IMG/VR virus record: IMGVR_UViG_3300012363_000003
Location: 1 to 63,410 of that record
DNA: 63,410 bases
Source: a virus
Strand: one strand, 5' to 3'
The position numbers and the translations under genes are program-made. Positions 1-63,410 of the stretch are shown here, in pieces. Positions within the stretch are counted from its first letter, which is position 1. Each line of letters begins with the position of its first letter. The notes beneath the pieces are model-generated. The model had not been told where the DNA came from. It searched no databases and saw only the letters and a program-made list of their open reading frames with translations.

Positions 1-123
1 ACAGGCTCATCACCAAGTTGAAGACCAGAGACTTTATCAGGTCTTGACCGGGAGTACTCAGGGAGTAGCCTAGCGGTAAGGTGTCTGCATTGGAAGCAGA
101 AGATCGGGGGTTCAAATCCTCCC
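1..123. repeat. Terminal overlap, exact copy of 63288..63410 (circular or terminally redundant genome, unit length 63287 bp)
   Basis: nt 1-123 read identically to the last 123 nt. nt 1-47 repeat the 3' end of the RNA ligase CDS and nt 59-123 repeat the tRNA start seen at 63346-63410. Confidence 0.95.
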
Positions 124-130
124 TCCCTGA
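59..130 (+). tRNA. tRNA-Pro (anticodon UGG), 72 nt, CCA not encoded
   Basis: Hand-folded cloverleaf. Acceptor CAGGGAG/CTCCCTG (C1-G72, A73), D arm GCCT-AGCGGTA-AGGT, anticodon arm TCTGC-ATTGGAA-GCAGA, variable AGATC, T arm GGGGG-TTCAAAT-CCTCC. Confidence 0.9.
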
Positions 131-241
131 CTGGCCTGAGCACTGCCCCCAGAACTGCTTCGTACCGTACTACGTAAGTGGCGGCGATTGGCCCACTCTT
201 AAAGCGGAATGAGTGGCGTATCCGGGCCGCGTTAGGGCCTC

Positions 242-2386: not shown

Positions 2387-3232
2387 ATGTTTGCTCGGAA
2401 GACTTCTCAAGTGCTCCTCTCCTTACTCCTGATGAGAGAGACAGTGCTTACCCAACCGGAGTTCGCGTTCCGGGCGGGGGTGGTGGAAGGGTTACTCCCA
2501 TCAGTCCTGCGCGTAATTGAGCAAGCTGGTCTCATTCTGATTGTACCACAGAAGGTCAATGGGGCCGACAAGGAGATTATTCATGACTTGGTTGCGGCGT
2601 ATGTTGTACCCCTTGCTCTACCCTTACTACATCGTTCGGTACAGGCACACGATCAAGGAAGCACTAGCATTGGGGATAGAGGAGCAGTCCCGCCGATTAA
2701 TGGAAGAGGTCAGAACGGGGAGATACTATCGCCCAACCTGTTGCGAGGAGCTAGCGGAGGAGATTGGAAGGTTGATAGACTATCGCGGCGCGGGGGTAGT
2801 GACAGCGGAGGAGTTGGTGAGACAGATCAGGATGCAGATGGGTCTACGCTCGACCTCTGCCGAAGAGCAGACGAAGCAGGGAACAGAACCGATCAAATAA
2901 AGGCACTCCAGGCTGCATGGGACGAAGCATTCCCGGTGGATCAGTACGACTACGCATACCAGAGGCTTACTGATGCGACTGCTAAGAAGTTCCTGGTAGG
3001 GAGGACTGCTGAGGAGGTGGCTGAGGTTATACTTGATGCTCCCAGGCGTGCAGGAAAGCAGATAAAGTGGCTCAAGGCGTACATCGAGGCATCTCTGGCA
3101 GGCATAGATAGTAAGAAGCAGCAACAGTCTGAGGATGAACCGATTATTACTGATGAGCTTAGAGATTTAGTGAGATTAGCAGGAGAACAAAAGCGTGCAA
3201 AGCGTCGTGTCCAGCCCTCACAAGGCAATTAG
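2387..3232 (+). CDS. Hypothetical protein (281 aa); the middle part is ambiguous against the overlapping +1 frame ORF 2541..2900
   Basis: Good RBS GGAGGGGAG before ATG 2387. Residues ~85-170 are Gly/Ser/Asp/Arg-rich, while the alternative frame looks helical. Confidence 0.4.
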   Translation: MFARKTSQVLLSLLLMRETVLTQPEFAFRAGVVEGLLPSVLRVIEQAGLILIVPQKVNGADKEIIHDLVAAYVVPLALPLLHRSVQAHDQGSTSIGDRGAVPPINGRGQNGEILSPNLLRGASGGDWKVDRLSRRGGSDSGGVGETDQDADGSTLDLCRRADEAGNRTDQIKALQAAWDEAFPVDQYDYAYQRLTDATAKKFLVGRTAEEVAEVILDAPRRAGKQIKWLKAYIEASLAGIDSKKQQQSEDEPIITDELRDLVRLAGEQKRAKRRVQPSQGN

Positions 3233-28396: not shown

Positions 28397-28872
28397 TCAA
28401 GCTCTGCCTTTTTGGGGGGCTGTGTGGCATTCAGAATGCGGGTGGCAATTTCATCAAGCAGGCTGCCATCCACCTCGGTTATCGTCTTCATGTTAATCGG
28501 TACGGGCTGACCGGGGGAGTACTCAAAGGGCCAAAACTTCAGACCGATTAATACAACCATCTTGGTATACGCCGACTGGTCCTGCTTAACGATAGTAGGC
28601 TTTCCGTCTTTGTCCAGGTCGATCTGAATAGCCGCCTTGTTCGCCTTCTGTCGCTCATCAATTGTCAGAGCACGCTTCACACGGATCGGGATTTCTTGCC
28701 CCCGCCAAAGAATGGAGGTCTCTATCCCACGATCATTCGCATCCGAGGAATAGTCCGACCATATGAAACGCTGCTCAATCATATCCTCAGCCATTTGTTG
28801 TGTCTTCTCCTTCAAGTAGGCCACCGTATCAACTATTAGGGGGTGGGACAATCTCTTATCTGGTTTCCGCAT
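28363..28872 (-). CDS. Tail assembly chaperone (169 aa)
   Basis: Assigned by position between the major tail and tape measure genes and by the downstream -1 frame extension. Confidence 0.65.
   Translation of the reverse strand: MRKPDKRLSHPLIVDTVAYLKEKTQQMAEDMIEQRFIWSDYSSDANDRGIETSILWRGQEIPIRVKRALTIDERQKANKAAIQIDLDKDGKPTIVKQDQSAYTKMVVLIGLKFWPFEYSPGQPVPINMKTITEVDGSLLDEIATRILNATQPPKKAELDPLESPSDEAS
28390..28396 (-). promoter_or_regulatory. Candidate -1 slippery heptamer C CCT TTA
   Basis: It has the X XXY YYZ pattern in the zero frame (gac cct tta), 27 nt before the chaperone stop. Confidence 0.5.
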
Positions 28873-47191: not shown

Positions 47192-47353
47192 ATGAAAAAC
47201 AGAAAGTGTGAGAAGTGCCACAAGCGGGCAATCTGGGAAAGCGTAACGGGGTTGTGTGAGCCTTGTTACGACAAGTTGAGTGAGTCTTGTGCTCAGGTCA
47301 AAACACTAAAAATGGATAATAAGACCTGGTGCAAGATTGTAACAGGAAAGTAG
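47192..47353 (+). CDS. Zinc-ribbon mini-protein (53 aa), below the track cutoff
   Basis: MKNRKCEKCH...LCEPCY. RBS-like GAGAGGAAGGGA upstream. The stop TAG overlaps the tRNA-like minihelix. Confidence 0.45.
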   Translation: MKNRKCEKCHKRAIWESVTGLCEPCYDKLSESCAQVKTLKMDNKTWCKIVTGK

Positions 47354-47394
47354 CTAGAATGGCACTCTGCCCGGTTCGAGTCCGGGTCTAGCTC
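47352..47394 (+). ncRNA. tRNA-like minihelix (acceptor stem plus T arm only)
   Basis: AGCTAGA-ATGGCACTCTG-CCCGG-TTCGAGT-CCGGG-TCTAGCT-C. It has a perfect 7-bp acceptor-type stem and a canonical T loop but no D or anticodon arm. Confidence 0.5.
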
Positions 47395-54376: not shown

Positions 54377-55312
54377 GTGGACCTACACGGAGCCATCGAG
54401 GAGTTCCTATTGAGCAAAGGGACCTCGTGGACAGCAAAAACATTCAAGTGGAACAGCTATTTTTTAGGCCGTTTTGAGAAGTGGTGCAGGGAGAAAAGCA
54501 GCCCGATTAATAAGCTGGAGCAGATAACCCCCACCCTGGTCCAAGCCTTCGCCGCCGACACCACCCCCAACACCCACACCCGCCACGCCCGCGCTCAGAT
54601 TGTGAAGGGCTTCCTCTCATGGTGTGCAAGCGATGCGGAGACCGGAGTGAAGCGGGGAATGGTGGAGCGGATAGAGATGCCCAGGCTGGTGCAGTCGGAC
54701 GTAGAATTGTTTTCTGCGGAGGACATTAATCGGTTGCTGCGTACATGCGAGGGCCTTTACTACCCGCACAGGAACAAGGCACTCATCCACGTCCTGCTCG
54801 ACACCGGGATACGCGCCTCAGAGTTGTGCTTCGACAGTGATCGGCCTGCGGAGCTTACTGGCCTGCGTATGGAGAACCTTTACCTGAGCCGGGGAGAGGA
54901 TGCATACCTACGTGTCATGGGGAAGGGACAGAAGGGACGCACTGTTGGGTTTGGGCACGAGACGAGCCTGGCAGTGCGGCGCTACCTGAACCGAGAACGT
55001 GTGGGCAGCAGCGAGTTCGTATTCCTGGCTCAAGGGGGAGCACCACTCTCTGTTCGTATGTTGCAGCACTTTCTTGACGATCTTGGGGAGCGGGCTGGCG
55101 TACCTGACTGCCACGCACACCGCTTCAGACATACCTTTGCAGTCAGTCAACTTATGGCGGGCACCAGCGACCTAGTATTGATGAGGTTACTGGGCCACAC
55201 GTCCTTGGAGGCAACAAAAATCTACACCCGTGCTATGACCCAGGTGCAGGCGAGACGGGCGGCACCGAGCATCATGGACAGAATGAAAGGGAGGAGTTCG
55301 CATGTTAGATAA
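54377..55312 (+). CDS. int: Tyrosine recombinase/integrase, XerC/D-like (311 aa)
   Basis: C-terminal catalytic pattern TGIRASEL ... HRFRHTFAVSQL ... LLGHTSLEATKIYT (R, HxxR, H, Y). Confidence 0.85.
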   Translation: MDLHGAIEEFLLSKGTSWTAKTFKWNSYFLGRFEKWCREKSSPINKLEQITPTLVQAFAADTTPNTHTRHARAQIVKGFLSWCASDAETGVKRGMVERIEMPRLVQSDVELFSAEDINRLLRTCEGLYYPHRNKALIHVLLDTGIRASELCFDSDRPAELTGLRMENLYLSRGEDAYLRVMGKGQKGRTVGFGHETSLAVRRYLNRERVGSSEFVFLAQGGAPLSVRMLQHFLDDLGERAGVPDCHAHRFRHTFAVSQLMAGTSDLVLMRLLGHTSLEATKIYTRAMTQVQARRAAPSIMDRMKGRSSHVR

Positions 55313-60423: not shown

Positions 60424-60966
60424 ATGTGTATTGATGTGAGTATTGAGCAGTACCGTAATGGCTGGCGTGACTATACCGTTGTGGCAGAGTACACTCACAC
60501 GGAGACGGGTAAGGAAGCGATCATTGCGAAGAGTCCGGCTGGGCACCTCTTCAACACGTACAACGCTAAAGGCTCCAGCTACCAGGGCTTCTGGAACTAC
60601 GGTGAGACGCCTGAAGAGTTGATGCGCCGGGCACACGAGGCCATGACCGAGCGTGGGTTCATCCTCAAAGGTGAAGTTCTCAAGTCCGATGCGTCTGCCC
60701 TGGTTACGGTGCAAGGTCGTACCCTGGACGAGTGGGAAGAGCAGGGCCGCATAAACGCCACCCTCCTGCCTGAAGAGCGTATCCATCCAGTACTGTCCAC
60801 TGTTGAGACCGAGGACGAGAAGTTGGCCTATGTTGCCAGCATGACCCCGATGGAAGCTGCACTGGCGATGGGCGTGGCTGGCTTCGAGGCACAGGCAGAA
60901 GTCACGAAGAAGACTCGCGCCTCCCGCCCCCGCCGACAACGCGCTTTGGTCTCGAACTTGCAGTAG
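60424..60966 (+). CDS. Hypothetical protein (180 aa)
   Basis: ORF in the array. Its 3' end converges on and overlaps the minus-strand gene by 65 nt. Confidence 0.5.
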   Translation: MCIDVSIEQYRNGWRDYTVVAEYTHTETGKEAIIAKSPAGHLFNTYNAKGSSYQGFWNYGETPEELMRRAHEAMTERGFILKGEVLKSDASALVTVQGRTLDEWEEQGRINATLLPEERIHPVLSTVETEDEKLAYVASMTPMEAALAMGVAGFEAQAEVTKKTRASRPRRQRALVSNLQ

Positions 60967-61456
60967 GCAGTCCTCGACCGCCGGATGCAGGCTTAGATGG
61001 GCGTTCGCTGAGACCCATTAAGAAGCGTTTCAGGTCAGCAGTCTCGGGGTCCTCATCGGCCTTCCTGCCTGCTGTCCTGGCCTTGCGAGTGACCGAGAGT
61101 TGATCTGCTAGCCCACGGAAATTGACTGCTGGGTGTTGCCTGGCCTGAGAAATTACGCGCCCGGTATCAAGCTCCTCCGCGATAATCCTAAGCCATTTTA
61201 TGTATTCTAATGCCATGAGGTGCAGGAGTATATAGTCTGTCGGCACCAGATCGGGATATTGATCTTTGTAGGCTGCCAAAAAGTAGTCGAACAGGTCACG
61301 CTCCAGGTCCGTCATCGTCATCTCTGGAAGTGGGGGCATGACGAGCTTCTCTGGTCTGCCTACGGGTCTCGGTTTCGGCTGCTGGGCTACCGTGAGTGGC
61401 CGCGCCTGAAGAGTCTGTGTATAGTGGTCTGCGTCTGAGTGAGGAGGGGTTGTCAT
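60902..61456 (-). CDS. Lone minus-strand gene, small-terminase-like (184 aa), low confidence
   Basis: The helical core LFDYFLAAYKDQYPDLVPTDYILLHLMALEYIKWLRI and HPAVNFRGLADQLSVTRKART is reminiscent of TerS proteins. The termini are basic or disordered. Confidence 0.3.
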   Translation of the reverse strand: MTTPPHSDADHYTQTLQARPLTVAQQPKPRPVGRPEKLVMPPLPEMTMTDLERDLFDYFLAAYKDQYPDLVPTDYILLHLMALEYIKWLRIIAEELDTGRVISQARQHPAVNFRGLADQLSVTRKARTAGRKADEDPETADLKRFLMGLSERPSKPASGGRGLPTASSRPKRVVGGGGRRESSS

Positions 61457-61971: not shown

Positions 61972-62156
61972 AAATGATCCAGGTAAGTAGGAACCTCTTT
62001 GTTACCGCACGCCCATCAGTCTACGGAGATGCCATTGAGCTTCAGAGTTATGGTGAGATAGTGGTAATTGACCGCGTGGACATACCCAGGCTGATCGAGG
62101 TCCTGGCAGCGCACATTCAAAAGTCAGAGGATAAGTCACTCAGACCAAAGTGCTAA
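61968..62156 (+). CDS. Hypothetical protein (62 aa)
   Basis: ATGA overlap with the previous stop. Confidence 0.45.
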   Translation: MKMIQVSRNLFVTARPSVYGDAIELQSYGEIVVIDRVDIPRLIEVLAAHIQKSEDKSLRPKC

Positions 62157-62221
62157 TCACCCCTCTTTAAGTATAGCACATATTGCCTGGTACTTTATGG
62201 CTATCAAACTAGAAAGTGTAC

Positions 62222-62250
62222 TTGACAGGGTTCAAAAAATAGTGCATACT
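62222..62250 (+). promoter_or_regulatory. Sigma70-like promoter of the ncRNA operon
   Basis: TTGACA, 17-nt spacer, CATACT. Confidence 0.55.
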
Positions 62251-62256
62251 CTCTGT

Positions 62257-62367
62257 AGACCCGGAAGATCGGGAGGGCGGGGGGAGTCCGGGCAGGGGGA
62301 GGTAAATCTGGTGAAGCCTTCGAGGGTCGGGCGCTTTCATCCAGTCGATGCCACCCCCTTATTTCTT
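62257..62367 (+). ncRNA. G-rich structured leader RNA
   Basis: Five G-runs at 62271-62302. Long-range pairing between GGGGGAGG (62295-62302) and CCACCCCC (62351-62358), with nested helices. No ORF. Confidence 0.4.
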
Positions 62368-62458
62368 GGGCACGTCGGGTTAGGCCAGGCCAATTAGTGC
62401 GACTGCGAAGCTCATGAGGCTTTTGGCGACGTGGGTTCGACTCCCACCGTGTCCACCA
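62368..62458 (+). ncRNA. Non-canonical 91-nt tRNA-like RNA with G3:U70, A73 and genomically encoded CCA
   Basis: Acceptor GGGCACG/CGTGTCC with a G3-T70 wobble. Perfect T arm GTGGG-TTCGACT-CCCAC. No D stem. The anticodon arm is replaced by GCCAA...TTGGC enclosing AAGC-TCATGAG-GCTT and a 14-nt bulge. Confidence 0.5.
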
Positions 62459-62525
62459 GACCACACGAGATAGGCTGACAACCTGTGGGGCTGTGGTCTA
62501 CGTGGGGGCTAGTCACCTCCACCGA

Positions 62526-62590
62526 CGCGAGGTAGAGGAGTGGTCGTCCTCGCCAGTTGGAGACCGTGGGTTCAAATCCCATCCTCGCTA
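62526..62590 (+). ncRNA. Truncated 65-nt tRNA-like RNA (acceptor, D arm, T arm; anticodon arm replaced by 14 nt)
   Basis: CGCGAGG-TA-GAGG-AGTGGTCGT-CCTC-GCCAGTTGGAGACC-GTGGG-TTCAAAT-CCCAT-CCTCGCT-A. The 1:72 pair is a C/T mismatch. Confidence 0.45.
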
Positions 62591-62593
62591 CTA

Positions 62594-62667
62594 CGAGACC
62601 GAAATATAGTTCCGGACGTGGGCCTACCGTTTGGGTAGTCTGAGAAGAAAGGTCCCGGTCTCGTTTT
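62594..62667 (+). terminator. Terminator-like long hairpin ending the ncRNA operon
   Basis: CGAGACCG (62594-62601) pairs with CGGTCTCG (62656-62663) and is followed by TTTT. There is an inner CTACC/GGTAG hairpin. Confidence 0.45.
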
Positions 62668-62684
62668 CATTTGGAGGGGGCAGT

Positions 62685-63334
62685 ATGCAGGAGTACACTA
62701 AAATACAGACCATTTTAAGCGGGATATGGCCGTGAAGGGAGCACCTGTCATCCTGGGAGCCTACACCATGCCAGAGTTCGAGTACCTGAAGGACAATGCA
62801 TGGGTCTTCACTGAGAAGGTAGATGGGACGAACGTGCGTGTGGCCTGGGATGGAGAGCAACGGATTTTTGGTGGTAGAACAGATAACGCGCAGATGCCAA
62901 CCTTCCTGCTCTCACACCTCCAACAGCTATTCCCGGATCGAGAGATGTTCGCCCAGCACTTTCCTCCCGTTGTTGGCTCACAGACCAATGTAATCCTTTT
63001 TGGTGAGGGCTACGGGGCCAGGATACAGAAGGGGGGCGGCAACTACATCCCGAACGGTGTGGGCTTTGTACTCTTCGACGTACTGGTGGGTGACTGGTGG
63101 CTGCGTAGGGAGGATGTGGAGGATGTTGCGGCTCACTTCGGCTTGAAGACGGTGCCCATCGTGGGTGAGGGTACATTGGCAACGGCGGTTGAGGTGGTGC
63201 GACGGGGGTTTGACTCGTGGTGGGGAAACTTTCCTGCTGAGGGTCTGGTGCTGCGGCCAAAGGTGGAGTTACGTACCAGGGCGGGGTACAGGCTCATCAC
63301 CAAGTTGAAGACCAGAGACTTTATCAGGTCTTGA
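62685..63334 (+). CDS. ATP-dependent RNA ligase family protein (KxDG nucleotidyltransferase), interrupted by a 1-nt frameshift in a T4 run at 62713-62716
   Basis: EKVDGTN lysine motif. ATG 62685 has RBS GGAGGGGG and encodes MQEYTKIQT. The track ORF (62726..63334) continues as FKRDMAVKG one frame over. One extra T would give KIQTIFKRD and a continuous 216-aa ORF. Confidence 0.65.
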
Positions 63335-63410
63335 CCGGGAGTACTCAGGGAGTAGCCTAGCGGTAAGGTGTCTGCATTGGAAGCAGAAGATCGGGGGTTC
63401 AAATCCTCCC
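63288..63410. repeat. Terminal overlap, exact copy of 1..123
   Basis: See the first feature. Confidence 0.95.
63346..63410 (+). tRNA. Same tRNA-Pro(UGG) as 59..130, truncated by the window end
   Basis: Identical sequence inside the terminal overlap. Confidence 0.9.

Follow-up and report, generated by a model that had tools for sequence, protein, structure and literature searches.

Bacterial tmRNA (ssrA; Rfam RF00023) joins a tRNA-like domain (TLD) to an mRNA part. The TLD has a G3:U70 pair, discriminator A73, a CCA end, a GUUCGANUC-type T loop, no D stem and a helix, P2, that leaves from the elbow; the mRNA part brings a resume codon, a tag open reading frame (ORF), a stop codon and pseudoknots. 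Alanyl-tRNA synthetase (AlaRS) needs only G3:U70 and A73, and SmpB binds the TLD elbow (PMC3968760). How much of such a molecule can be given up? In organelles, nearly everything outside the TLD: tmRNAs without a coding sequence (CDS) occur in some mitochondria and, in forms of about 65 bp, in the plastids of Mallomonadaceae (PMC11915505), where the reduced molecule is the sole tmRNA of a reduced system and is thought to aid rescue together with imported SmpB. Among phages, TLD-only RNAs, a rare kind, were noted earlier for a single one, the mycobacteriophage DS6A (a temperate siphovirus of about 60 kb), whose "TLD only" tmRNA (tmRNA Website ID 11587; JN698994, 28478-28560) was tied to one experiment suggesting a block of trans-translation. 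That inhibitory effect was reportedly seen in one E. coli experiment with a DS6A-like molecule, as related by secondary citation (PMC11915505).

The window considered here, the whole stretch of 63,410 nt of DNA from a soil phage that was analysed, has a gap before its RNA ligase gene that was first described as free of any credible ORF. So it is: the only ORFs listed in 62157-62684 are two overlapping ones of 66 and 86 aa, neither of them called by independent annotation. The first-pass annotation had read this gap as a promoter-to-terminator operon of non-canonical RNAs. The features as we now see them are these.

62222-62250, + strand: sigma-70-type promoter TTGACA-17 nt-CATACT, 10/12 consensus matches, the putative driver of the small-RNA cluster
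62251-62367, + strand: leader of ~110 nt with a G-rich run, specific to the window
62368-62458, + strand: TLD-only tmRNA-like RNA ("mini-tmRNA"), assigned by Rfam tmRNA, covariance model R1 and six-sequence covariation
62459-62525, + strand: spacer with two hairpins, MFE -28 kcal/mol, z -1.33, not significant
about 62458-62499, + strand: hairpin AGACCACA/UGUGGUCU
62502-62524, + strand: hairpin GUGGGGG-CUAGUCA-CCUCCAC, then CG
62526-62590, + strand: deletion derivative of the lineage's tRNA-Met(CAU), with 9 nt, ACTCATAAC, missing between 62556 and 62557
62594-62667, + strand: long-range stem CGAGACCG/CGGTCTCG, then UUUU, enclosing 54 nt in the 5' region of the ligase gene, z -1.15
62685-63334, + strand: RNA ligase gene (PF09414, E 1.4e-18), inserted between tRNA-Met and tRNA-Pro
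63346-63410, continuing at window positions 59-131, + strand: canonical tRNA-Pro(UGG), called by ARAGORN and Rfam, last gene of the ancestral RNA cluster

The explanation that we favor is that the cluster ancestrally ran promoter, TLD-only tmRNA-like RNA, tRNA-Met(CAU), tRNA-Pro; that the 91-nt RNA, a competitor in host ribosome rescue, is its only unusual working part; that the 65-nt element is a tRNA-Met pseudogene; and that the ligase is a later insertion upstream of tRNA-Pro, confined to the sub-lineage of the window and its relative L008 and without functional tie to the RNAs. We put the probability of this explanation, taken as a whole, at about 0.6.

The 91-nt RNA had been described as a tRNA-like molecule that has a 7-bp acceptor stem with G3:U70, A73, an encoded CCA and a perfect T arm but lacks a D stem, and it is exactly that. 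Its parts are as follows.

62368-62374 / 62448-62454, + strand: acceptor stem, 7 bp, with G3:U70
62375-62383, + strand: unpaired D-loop analogue
62384-62388 / 62423-62427, + strand: helix P2, GCCAG/UUGGC, paired by homology
62389-62422, + strand: variable cap
62428-62430, + strand: GAC linker
62431-62447, + strand: T arm, perfect
62455, + strand: discriminator A73
62456-62458, + strand: encoded CCA

A helix under the TLD does exist where GCCAA/TTGGC had been proposed, with the partner of UUGGC corrected by homology to GCCAG. Nothing that marks a tmRNA TLD is thus missing: G3:U70, the discriminator A, the CCA, the T arm and the stemless D loop are all in place. On the Rfam tmRNA model the RNA scores 37.6 bits, below the family threshold of 47, and only the TLD is aligned: 51 nt stand against the central 326 positions of the model, which are skipped, pseudoknots PK1-PK4 being absent, and against the roughly 270-330 nt of bacterial tmRNA. 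There is no tag-like ORF in any frame, so that a hidden one can be rejected, and no resume codon or stop codon; with these and the pseudoknots missing, the mRNA half of trans-translation is impossible for this molecule. ARAGORN calls no tmRNA at the locus. A permuted two-piece tmRNA (RF04321) was also rejected (13.4 bits, E 1.6), the order in the window being the standard 5'-to-3' one, and the proposal of a Y-RNA-like effector failed, there being no Rfam match to Y RNA or YrlA at E up to 10 in 62150-62700 and no Ro or RtcB gene recognized near the locus. Judged by its sequence, the 91-nt RNA is a tmRNA TLD without the mRNA part, that is, a TLD-only relative of tmRNA.

It is not the only one. 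At least 40 similar TLD-only RNAs of 80-85 nt are found in other viral contigs, and ARAGORN calls none of the phage TLD-only RNAs found there. These RNAs from uncultivated phages (IMG/VR contigs L110, L058 and L128, for example) have the same architecture as the window RNA, and some lie within phage tRNA arrays (L086, L020, L152). A covariance model seeded with 12 of these other phage TLD-only RNAs (R1), in which P2 covaries at 8/8 pairs, aligns the window RNA over its full length (positions 1-82) at 34.5 bits and E 5e-6, a score that overlaps those of ordinary tRNA-Ala genes (28-40 bits), core family members scoring 42-99. The core family is marked by a GG(U)UUCGAC D-loop analogue, a cap with AAA and a CCGCACGCGG-type sequence, and GGAC before the T arm. 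The window RNA has the GAC before the T arm, but it reads UCGGGUUAG in the D-loop analogue where GGUUCGAC is usual, and its cap differs from that of the core. On Rfam tmRNA, core members reach 54-69 bits, above the threshold, whereas the window lineage reaches 34-39 (with L396 and L384 undetected); the latter scores 22-35 bits on R1, at lengths of 91-105 nt. The window lineage is, on these comparisons, a separate and divergent sub-family of phage TLD-only RNAs.

Set beside DS6A, the likeness is one of design. Both RNAs are phage-encoded and shorter than 100 nt, both have the 7-bp acceptor with G3:U70 and A73, a D-loop analogue that is not paired, a P2 that is short and capped by a small hairpin, a 3-nt linker (CAC in DS6A, GAC in the window) and a T arm, neither has a tag reading frame, and both fall under the Rfam tmRNA threshold (DS6A at 43.2 bits) with only the TLD aligned. 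The phages themselves are alike in the temperate siphovirus character and size of DS6A. Beyond the common features of tmRNA, however, the two show no sequence relationship: DS6A has the usual D-loop analogue GGUGGUCGAC and the conserved CCGCACGCGG cap, whereas the cap in the window is different and longer; the 3' end is CUA in DS6A and CCA in the window; and the DS6A gene is solitary, whereas the window gene heads a tRNA cluster.

Is this RNA maintained, or is it simply what remains of something larger? In five relatives (L384, L386, L392, L394 and L396), located through a protein-database search with a 316-aa neighbor protein, the conserved promoter is likewise followed by a homologous RNA, of 100-105 nt. 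A nucleotide similarity search of GenBank phages with 62150-62700 gave nothing, and no Pfam or PHROG annotation was found for the neighboring proteins. Across the six lineage sequences the acceptor, P2 and T helices are kept, with 99% of cells paired and 8/17 pairs changed on both sides; none of 500 shuffles reached the observed covariation, and slid controls were paired at 34-53%. G3:U70 is present in 6/6 homologues, in a sequence set that was not selected for it. The 3' end is CCG instead of CCA in two relatives. The compensatory changes among the six sequences argue that the structure is maintained by selection.

On the opposite reading everything here is decay: some tmRNA, of phage or host, lost its middle and left the 91-nt RNA as a relic, and all of the non-canonical RNAs are without function. 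The locus does show a deletion bias (the 9-nt loss from tRNA-Met, a shorter internal arm in the TLD, a frameshifted ligase, possibly a microhelix remnant), and the score of the 91-nt RNA lies under the Rfam threshold. In the relatives the internal arm is 9-14 nt longer, and the shortness of the window arm could itself be decay. However, a relic would not be expected to keep G3:U70, A73 and a perfect T arm amid diverging spacers (those flanking the TLD cannot be aligned among relatives), and compensatory changes keep the TLD helices across six lineage members. A promoter conserved directly ahead of the TLD in four relatives and a large family of the same design in unrelated phages, with P2 strongly covarying, also count against decay, and we consider it unlikely for the locus as a whole.

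The promoter deserves a closer look. A consensus scan found 1 site against 0.4 expected. Ahead of the TLD, 5/5 relatives have identical -35 and -10 elements, again 17 nt apart, and the promoter claimed at 62222 is confirmed. The leader is another matter. Between the -10 element and the TLD, four relatives have 12-14 nt, L384 has 69 nt and the window has 117 nt; no Rfam match to the leader was found, and it folds no better than shuffled sequence (z -0.12). The G-quadruplex-capable run pointed out earlier is a peculiarity of the window; we rejected it as a functional feature, the leader not being conserved among relatives, and regard the leader as probably an insertion without a conserved role. 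Nor does the operon have the end that it was given. The terminator search of the locus found no canonical intrinsic terminator and called no terminator-like site at 62594-62667; the CGAGACCG/CGGTCTCG stem encloses 54 nt, and its sequence is not common to L008 or the other relatives. We rejected it as an intrinsic terminator. The leader, the two hairpins and the region as a whole fold no better than shuffled sequence (z +0.1 to -1.5). A conserved promoter thus survives from the proposed operon, and the terminator does not.

At the far end of the cluster, tRNA-Pro was correctly described as canonical. It scores 66.1 bits on the Rfam tRNA model at 59-130 and 48.1 bits at 63346-63410, where it is cut by the window end; it runs on at 59-131 because the record, which has a 123-bp terminal overlap, is circular. 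It comes after tRNA-Met in L386, L392 and L396.

The 65-nt element is where the relatives tell us most. It was presented as a tRNA-like RNA with acceptor, D and T arms and no anticodon arm, and these arms are there: it scores 39.3 bits on Rfam tRNA (RF00005; threshold 29), although only 8 nt are left of the anticodon arm and ARAGORN rejects it. It is, however, an ordinary tRNA-Met minus 9 nt. The deleted ACTCATAAC, present in L386, L392 and L396, is the anticodon loop plus its closing positions, and the intact 74-nt tRNA-Met of these relatives is otherwise nearly identical to the window copy (alignment A8), which differs from it at 2-3 positions while the spacers are unalignable. So few changes fit a very recent deletion and fit equally well continued selection on the truncated RNA. 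In L394 the same gene carries a 37-nt duplication, and in L384 it is missing. Ordinary full-length tRNAs at the homologous loci had been named beforehand as the observation that would speak for degraded remnants, and they are what the relatives hold; the suggestion of decayed tRNA genes fits this element well. The acceptor marks are initiator-like (a C1xU72 mismatch, with A11:U24), and the initiator tRNA of an Actinomycetota genome (L378) shares the CGCGAGG acceptor strand, the 1:72 mismatch, A11:U24 and the T loop UUCAAAU. In contrast to bacterial initiator tRNA-fMet, the window element has no anticodon loop and hence no CAU anticodon; the initiator anticodon stem has three G:C pairs, a run that is lacking from the CCAGA/CCTGG of the intact relatives, and in the window the stem is deleted. 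A functional tRNA-Met(CAU) has a 7-nt loop with CAU, which this element lacks. We infer from the 9-nt deletion of the anticodon loop that the element cannot decode and has lost its function; it is most likely a pseudogene.

One might nevertheless suppose that these truncated molecules are the point. The TLD-only RNA, the anticodon-less tRNA-Met, a microhelix in the spacer and a minihelix elsewhere in the genome would then be working "top halves," decoys that sponge up host factors or defense toxins reading the acceptor/T-arm end of tRNA, such as enzymes that modify or cleave CCA ends. The minihelix is a third anticodon-less tRNA-like element, of 42 nt, at 47352-47393 in the same phage, and it hints that anticodon-less top halves are perhaps not accidents. 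In favor of a decoy set, three to four elements without an anticodon arm, all with perfect stems, stand in one genome: a descriptor scan for them gave 4 hits where 0.3 were expected, and the T-loop motif was found 5 times where the expectation is 0.2. In its favor as well, the truncated tRNA-Met has hardly changed apart from its deletion, against neighboring spacers that have diverged beyond alignment; the genotype of the locus is identical in at least four assemblies; and tRNAs with the same arm truncated turn up in a minimum of one other viral contig (L245) and perhaps in a second (L372, which is imperfect). However, relatives keep the tRNA-Met intact, or have it broken in another way or missing, as one expects of a dispensable gene. 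The anticodon-less form is also very rare: a pattern search of 2.9 million viral contigs gave 5 hits, no more than 2-3 of them comparable. The exact mini-tRNA pattern had no match in viral contigs, and a metagenome DNA scan with a loose combined pattern turned up a few unrelated truncated tRNAs among the matches listed. No defense or anti-defense protein was recognized among the neighbors, and we know of no toxin that targets these particular RNAs. We regard a decoy set, targets included, as improbable.

The microhelix in question is the second of two spacer hairpins reported at 62458-62499 and 62502-62522. Both sequences are there, with a stability not beyond that of shuffled sequence (z -1.33). 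The second resembles an alanine acceptor microhelix, with a G:U third pair followed by ACCG, and scores 9.1 bits (E 0.15) against the tmRNA acceptor stem in Rfam; L394 and L384 have a non-canonical tRNA-like element of 79-80 nt after the TLD, where the window has the spacer alone. The hairpin is perhaps what is left of another tRNA-like gene. A bolder version of the decoy reading would see in all four of the top halves named above, the tRNA-Met with its initiator-like marks and the alanine-type microhelix among them, a kit of anticodon-less mimics, deliberately kept as decoys or sponges for SmpB, EF-Tu, formyltransferase or defense toxins that alter or cleave the CCA end. If so, the precise loss of an anticodon loop would be adaptive and not decay. 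We think that the odds are heavily against it.

Our favored explanation also leaves the ligase aside. RNA ligase (PF09414), tRNA-Pro and kinase (AAA_33) are all present as first described, and the tRNA-like RNAs were proposed to be substrates or cofactors of RNA repair; one might add guides, serving the adjacent ligase and the distant kinase in the way that YrlA sits beside RtcB. The ligase starts 95 nt past the second element on the same strand, and DS6A, too, has a gene for an RNA ligase, one of the RtcB type. The adjacent gene is indeed there, but its start lies at 62685, and at about 62713-62716 a 1-nt lesion shifts the frame, which reopens at ATG 62726; once the protein is repaired, its homologues can be aligned from the first residue onward, and the lesion is identical in three further assemblies. 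No relative of the ligase with a solved structure was found by sequence. In L008 (895 bp), the closest relative, the ligase is 87% identical and intact, and it lies exactly between the tRNA-Met/tRNA-Pro spacer and tRNA-Pro, so that the insertion point is visible; at the homologous loci of the relatives (5/5) there is no ligase at all. Six ligase relatives in other phages (L001, L002, L004, L005, L009/L010 and L011) have no tRNA-like RNA beside the gene. Neither this ligase nor RtcB occurs among the 120 TLD-pattern viral loci listed (1.03 Mb), about 40 of which carry a TLD-only RNA, and co-occurrence with RNA ligase, RtcB or kinase genes was rejected among those 120. In DS6A itself the ligase and TLD genes are about 21 kb apart. 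With a frameshifted ligase here, and no YrlA or Y RNA match at the locus, a link to RNA repair strikes us as very improbable.

Equally hard to credit is the idea that the pieces are 3' ends of host genes in the attP of a temperate phage that integrates at ssrA or tRNA genes: the phage does encode a tyrosine integrase (54377-55312), integration often takes place at tmRNA and tRNA genes (PMC10865867), and some shorter hits in viral contigs resemble such attachment-site fragments, but both elements include the 5' acceptor strand and are thus whole folded units rather than 3' fragments, the locus is 7 kb from the integrase, the exact 25-nt 3' end of the window TLD is absent from viral contigs and from the genomes of 185,579 species, which argues against an attP or host-copy origin, the 91-nt element has its own conserved promoter, and DS6A integrates at tRNA-Lys and not at its TLD (PMC10865867).

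What, then, could a tmRNA without a message do for a phage? Most likely, by analogy with the one cited experiment on a similar molecule, the 91-nt RNA receives alanine and then rivals the tmRNA of the host for access to SmpB and the ribosome, so that ribosome rescue in the host is probably disturbed. The RNA would be freed from its transcript by RNase P and 3' trimming, host AlaRS would charge it through G3:U70 and A73, and SmpB would bind it at the elbow, as would EF-Tu. Having no template for resuming translation, it would be a competitor, one that soaks up SmpB or occupies stalled ribosomes, and the outcome would be a lowering of host trans-translation in infection or lysogeny. Charging, SmpB binding and inhibition of trans-translation are what we infer here, and SmpB binding by the window RNA is uncertain because its D-loop analogue departs from the usual sequence. 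The organellar tmRNAs without a CDS are likewise natural derivatives of tmRNA, little more than a TLD (PMC11915505). Unlike them, the window RNA would be an extra, viral copy in a cell that presumably has a full tmRNA of its own. The earlier suggestion of an alanine-chargeable tmRNA-like effector suits a TLD-only relative of tmRNA that is conserved with covariation in its lineage.

For annotators there is some caution in all of this: the "tRNA-like RNA" beside the mini-tmRNA is a tRNA-Met with a 9-nt deletion, and the neighboring RNA ligase is an unrelated, damaged insertion. For phage biology, the window locus represents a second, divergent lineage, after DS6A, that keeps a TLD-only RNA under its own conserved promoter, and dozens of similar RNAs lie in uncultivated phages, invisible to ARAGORN, a standard tRNA and tmRNA finder. 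If our proposal is true, these molecules would be a widespread, RNA-only means by which phages tune the main ribosome-rescue pathway of their hosts.

How should one read two anticodon-less RNAs lying side by side in a phage genome? The first-pass annotation took both to be non-canonical tRNA-like RNAs, and the locus comprises:

62222-62250, promoter TTGACA-17-CATACT
62368-62458, 91-nt RNA resembling the tRNA-like domain (TLD) of tmRNA
62526-62590, 65-nt tRNA-like element
62685-63334, + strand, RNA ligase (PF09414)

Both RNAs are indeed tRNA-like. The 91-nt RNA matches Rfam tmRNA at 37.6 bits (threshold 47), in an alignment confined to the two TLD halves, with 51 nt replacing 326 model positions; the 65-nt element matches Rfam tRNA at 39.3 bits (threshold 29), with 2 nt in the anticodon arm vs 11 in the model. 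ARAGORN, run on the window, reported neither. We argue that the first is a new divergent member of the phage TLD-only tmRNAs, which are known yet barely studied, and that the second is a tRNA-Met deletion pseudogene.

The window, which comes from soil metagenomes, is a circular, complete phage genome of 63,287 bp, with 123 bp repeated at both ends. Because it encodes terminase, portal, capsid and tape-measure proteins, a family-A DNA polymerase, primase and DnaB-type helicase, and a tyrosine integrase, it is probably a temperate tailed phage; GenBank phages include no close relative. Positions 62151-63340 recur at 100% identity in three further assemblies (JGI, NCBI and ENA), so that the odd features are real and assembly error is ruled out. 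Elsewhere, amid the plus-strand early genes, a 184-aa minus-strand ORF (60902-61456) lies in a 490-bp gap left uncalled in one annotation; Pfam and PHROG returned zero matches for it, and it is a candidate gene.

A TLD-only tmRNA has been described in mycobacteriophage DS6A. We located it at 28478-28560 (Rfam tmRNA 43.2 bits, TLD only), and its layout is like that of the window RNA: a 7-bp acceptor stem with G3:U70, a 13-nt unpaired D-loop analogue, a 6-bp P2 helix with a small cap, CAC, the T arm, the acceptor strand and A. A degenerate pattern for this architecture gave at least 120 matches in IMG/VR, and among the matches listed, after an acceptor-pairing filter, were about 40 elements of 80-84 nt of one design. 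Twelve sequences, DS6A included, formed a clean seed alignment in which 92% of cells were paired and 16 of 23 pairs had changed on both sides (8/8 in P2). The covariance model built from this seed, R1, aligned the window element over its full length at 34.5 bits (E 5e-6), a modest score, since core members reach 42-99 bits and ordinary tRNA-Ala genes 28-40. Because the score falls below the core range and overlaps that of tRNA-Ala genes, the 91-nt RNA would, on sequence, be a divergent relative outside the core. Core members score 54-69 bits on Rfam tmRNA, above threshold, and drew zero calls from ARAGORN.

The IMG/VR genes of this kind (80-85 nt; contigs L110, L058, L053, L099, L128, L152, L238 and at least some 35 more) are mostly solitary, those of L086, L020 and L152 sitting inside tRNA arrays. 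Two further IMG/VR contigs, L035 (3609-3713) and L383, of 120 and 234 kb, carry an identical 105-nt TLD-like RNA that shares the GGGTTAGGC motif and GTGGG/CCCAC T stem with the window but has a larger, multi-hairpin interior.

Is the fold maintained? Through two conserved downstream proteins, of 316 aa (1418-2368) and 94 aa (1080-1364), we found five distinct relatives (L384, L386, L392, which equals L393, L394 and L396), each with a gene-free gap at the equivalent place; in the window, 62157-62684 likewise holds no credible ORF, as had been claimed. The gap opens in all five with a promoter, TTGAC(A/T), 17 nt, (C/T)AT(A/T)CT, and the window's own promoter, also proposed earlier, is the sole promoter-like site in 900 bp (0.4 expected). 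A TLD-only RNA of 100-105 nt follows in every relative (34-39 bits on Rfam tmRNA in 4/5). Its 5' part aligns without gaps to the window's, the D-loop analogue reading AAAGGUUCG in the relatives and UCGGGUUAG in the window. Across the six sequences, 99% of cells in the acceptor, P2 and T helices are paired and 8 of 17 pairs have changed on both sides, a level that 0/500 shuffles attained (slid controls, 34-53% paired); G3:U70 and A73, on which the set was not chosen, are invariant. As the helices are kept by covariation while the flanking spacers cannot be aligned between window and relatives, the fold is under purifying selection. That the 91-nt RNA is a relic without function is thus unlikely, contradicted as it is by the covariation and by the conserved promoter.

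Less survives of its surroundings. The distance from the -10 element to the RNA is 12-14 nt in four of the five relatives (69 nt in L384) but 117 nt here, which suggests that the G-rich leader is an insertion specific to the window. The structured leader and hairpins of the first-pass annotation fold, as does the whole region, no better than shuffled sequence, and a canonical terminator was not found there. L394 (857-935) and L384 (7358-7437) bear, 3' of the TLD RNA, an additional non-canonical tRNA-like element of 79-80 nt (GGGTGCG...TGCACCCACCG) with a good T arm, no Rfam tRNA match and, for the L384 copy, a doubtful ARAGORN tRNA-Ser; the window microhelix at 62502-62524 may be what is left of such an element.

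The 65-nt element has a plainer origin. L386, L392 and L396 carry, 3' of the TLD RNA, a 74-nt tRNA-Met(CAU) called by ARAGORN and Rfam (54.7-54.9 bits), and the window element is this gene minus ACTCATAAC (the anticodon loop and closing positions; gap between 62556 and 62557), with 2-3 differing positions outside the deletion. With an ordinary full-length tRNA-Met in the homologous loci, an outcome that the first-pass annotation had itself named as refuting, its reading as a non-canonical RNA falls. The gene was disrupted independently a second time in L394 (1030-1143), where 37 internal nt, reaching from the D loop to where the T stem starts, are duplicated in tandem, and L384 lacks it altogether; tRNA-Met would thus be a dispensable gene, lost by different routes in the window, L394 and L384. 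The truncated copy is most likely inert, being unable to decode. At its acceptor end the lineage gene resembles an initiator (CGCGAGG, C1xU72, A11:U24, UUCAAAU T loop), and a search with its 3' half led to an Actinomycetota genome whose initiator tRNA has the same marks; the lineage gene, however, is without the G:C run of initiator anticodon stems. As in the window, tRNA-Pro closes the cluster in the relatives.

In that Actinomycetota genome, the MAG L378, the initiator tRNA (1884-1958) and, ~1.2 kb off, a 3'-half copy from anticodon loop to ACCA (~3090-3145) resemble the termini of a small element that integrated into tRNA-fMet. Initiator-like tRNAs of 51-68 nt (CGCGGGG...CCCCGCAACCA) in IMG/VR contigs L146 (2460-2510), L188, L251, L141, L142, L169 and L219 keep a CUCAUAA anticodon loop and encoded CCA and have no normal D arm; these phage contigs carry tRNA-Met-like genes in reduced form, truncated in the opposite way to the window's.

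One might instead imagine all the anticodon-less elements acting together as decoys. The truncated tRNA-Met is suspiciously well preserved, and elsewhere in the genome lies a further tRNA "top half," a minihelix of 42 nt:

47352-47393, + strand, 7-bp acceptor-like stem AGCTAGA/TCTAGCT and perfect T arm CCCGG-TTCGAGT-CCGGG, with 11 nt replacing the D and anticodon arms

It starts within the stop codon of a 53-aa CxxC...CxxC ORF (47192-47353) and has no Rfam match; a descriptor scan for such top halves gave 4 matches in the genome vs 0.3 expected. However, decay is favored by three observations: some relatives keep the gene intact, L394 and L384 have lesions of other kinds, and anticodon-less forms are rare. 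We think the decoy idea improbable.

The RNA ligase is present as annotated, though as a frameshifted gene. Its conserved N terminus (MQEYTKIQTI...) is encoded in a different frame, from 62685 on, and once the frame is repaired homologues align to the protein from residue 1; measured against its closest relative, intact and 87% identical, the gene lacks one base at ~62713-62716. Because the lesion is identical in four assemblies, it is real, and the gene is either a pseudogene or one that yields a protein shortened at its N terminus. Translation might restart at the ATG at 62726, slightly before the end (62735) of a leader ORF of 16 codons. In all five relatives the cluster is free of a ligase. 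In contig L008, the ligase is preceded directly by the spacer that separates tRNA-Met from tRNA-Pro in L392, and its stop codon overlaps tRNA-Pro; the gene was therefore inserted directly 5' of tRNA-Pro. In six other phage contigs the ligase homologue has nothing tRNA-like beside it, the 120 viral loci (1.03 Mb) listed for the TLD pattern encode neither this ligase nor an RtcB, and DS6A does encode an RtcB, at a distance of ~21 kb from the TLD gene. The ligase is a passenger, and what looked like an operon beside it is a tRNA cluster into which a gene, now damaged, was later inserted; that the RNAs serve the adjacent enzyme as cofactors is, on these comparisons, very improbable. Equally remote is the notion that they are attachment-site leftovers, given two complete folds, an integrase 7 kb away and, for the 3' end of the TLD, no match in the genomes of 185,579 species.

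What, then, might a TLD without a message do? AlaRS keys on G3:U70 and A73, SmpB binds the TLD elbow and holds its single-stranded D loop, and EF-Tu brings the charged complex to stalled ribosomes, according to two papers (PMC3968760; PMC3985003). The 91-nt RNA appears to retain all of these surfaces, and a tag-frame check found in it nothing on which translation could resume. On these two grounds, we propose that it would compete with host tmRNA for SmpB, or act as a dead-end A-site ligand, and that trans-translation would thereby be lowered. The proposal is consistent with a cited experiment on a DS6A-like molecule, and we give its steps roughly even odds. The phage could gain if its proteins translated from cleaved or truncated mRNAs escaped tagging, or if rescue shifted to other pathways. 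The by-product may prove the more useful: mini-tmRNAs, covarying and overlooked by ARAGORN, a standard tRNA/tmRNA finder, are common in uncultivated phages.
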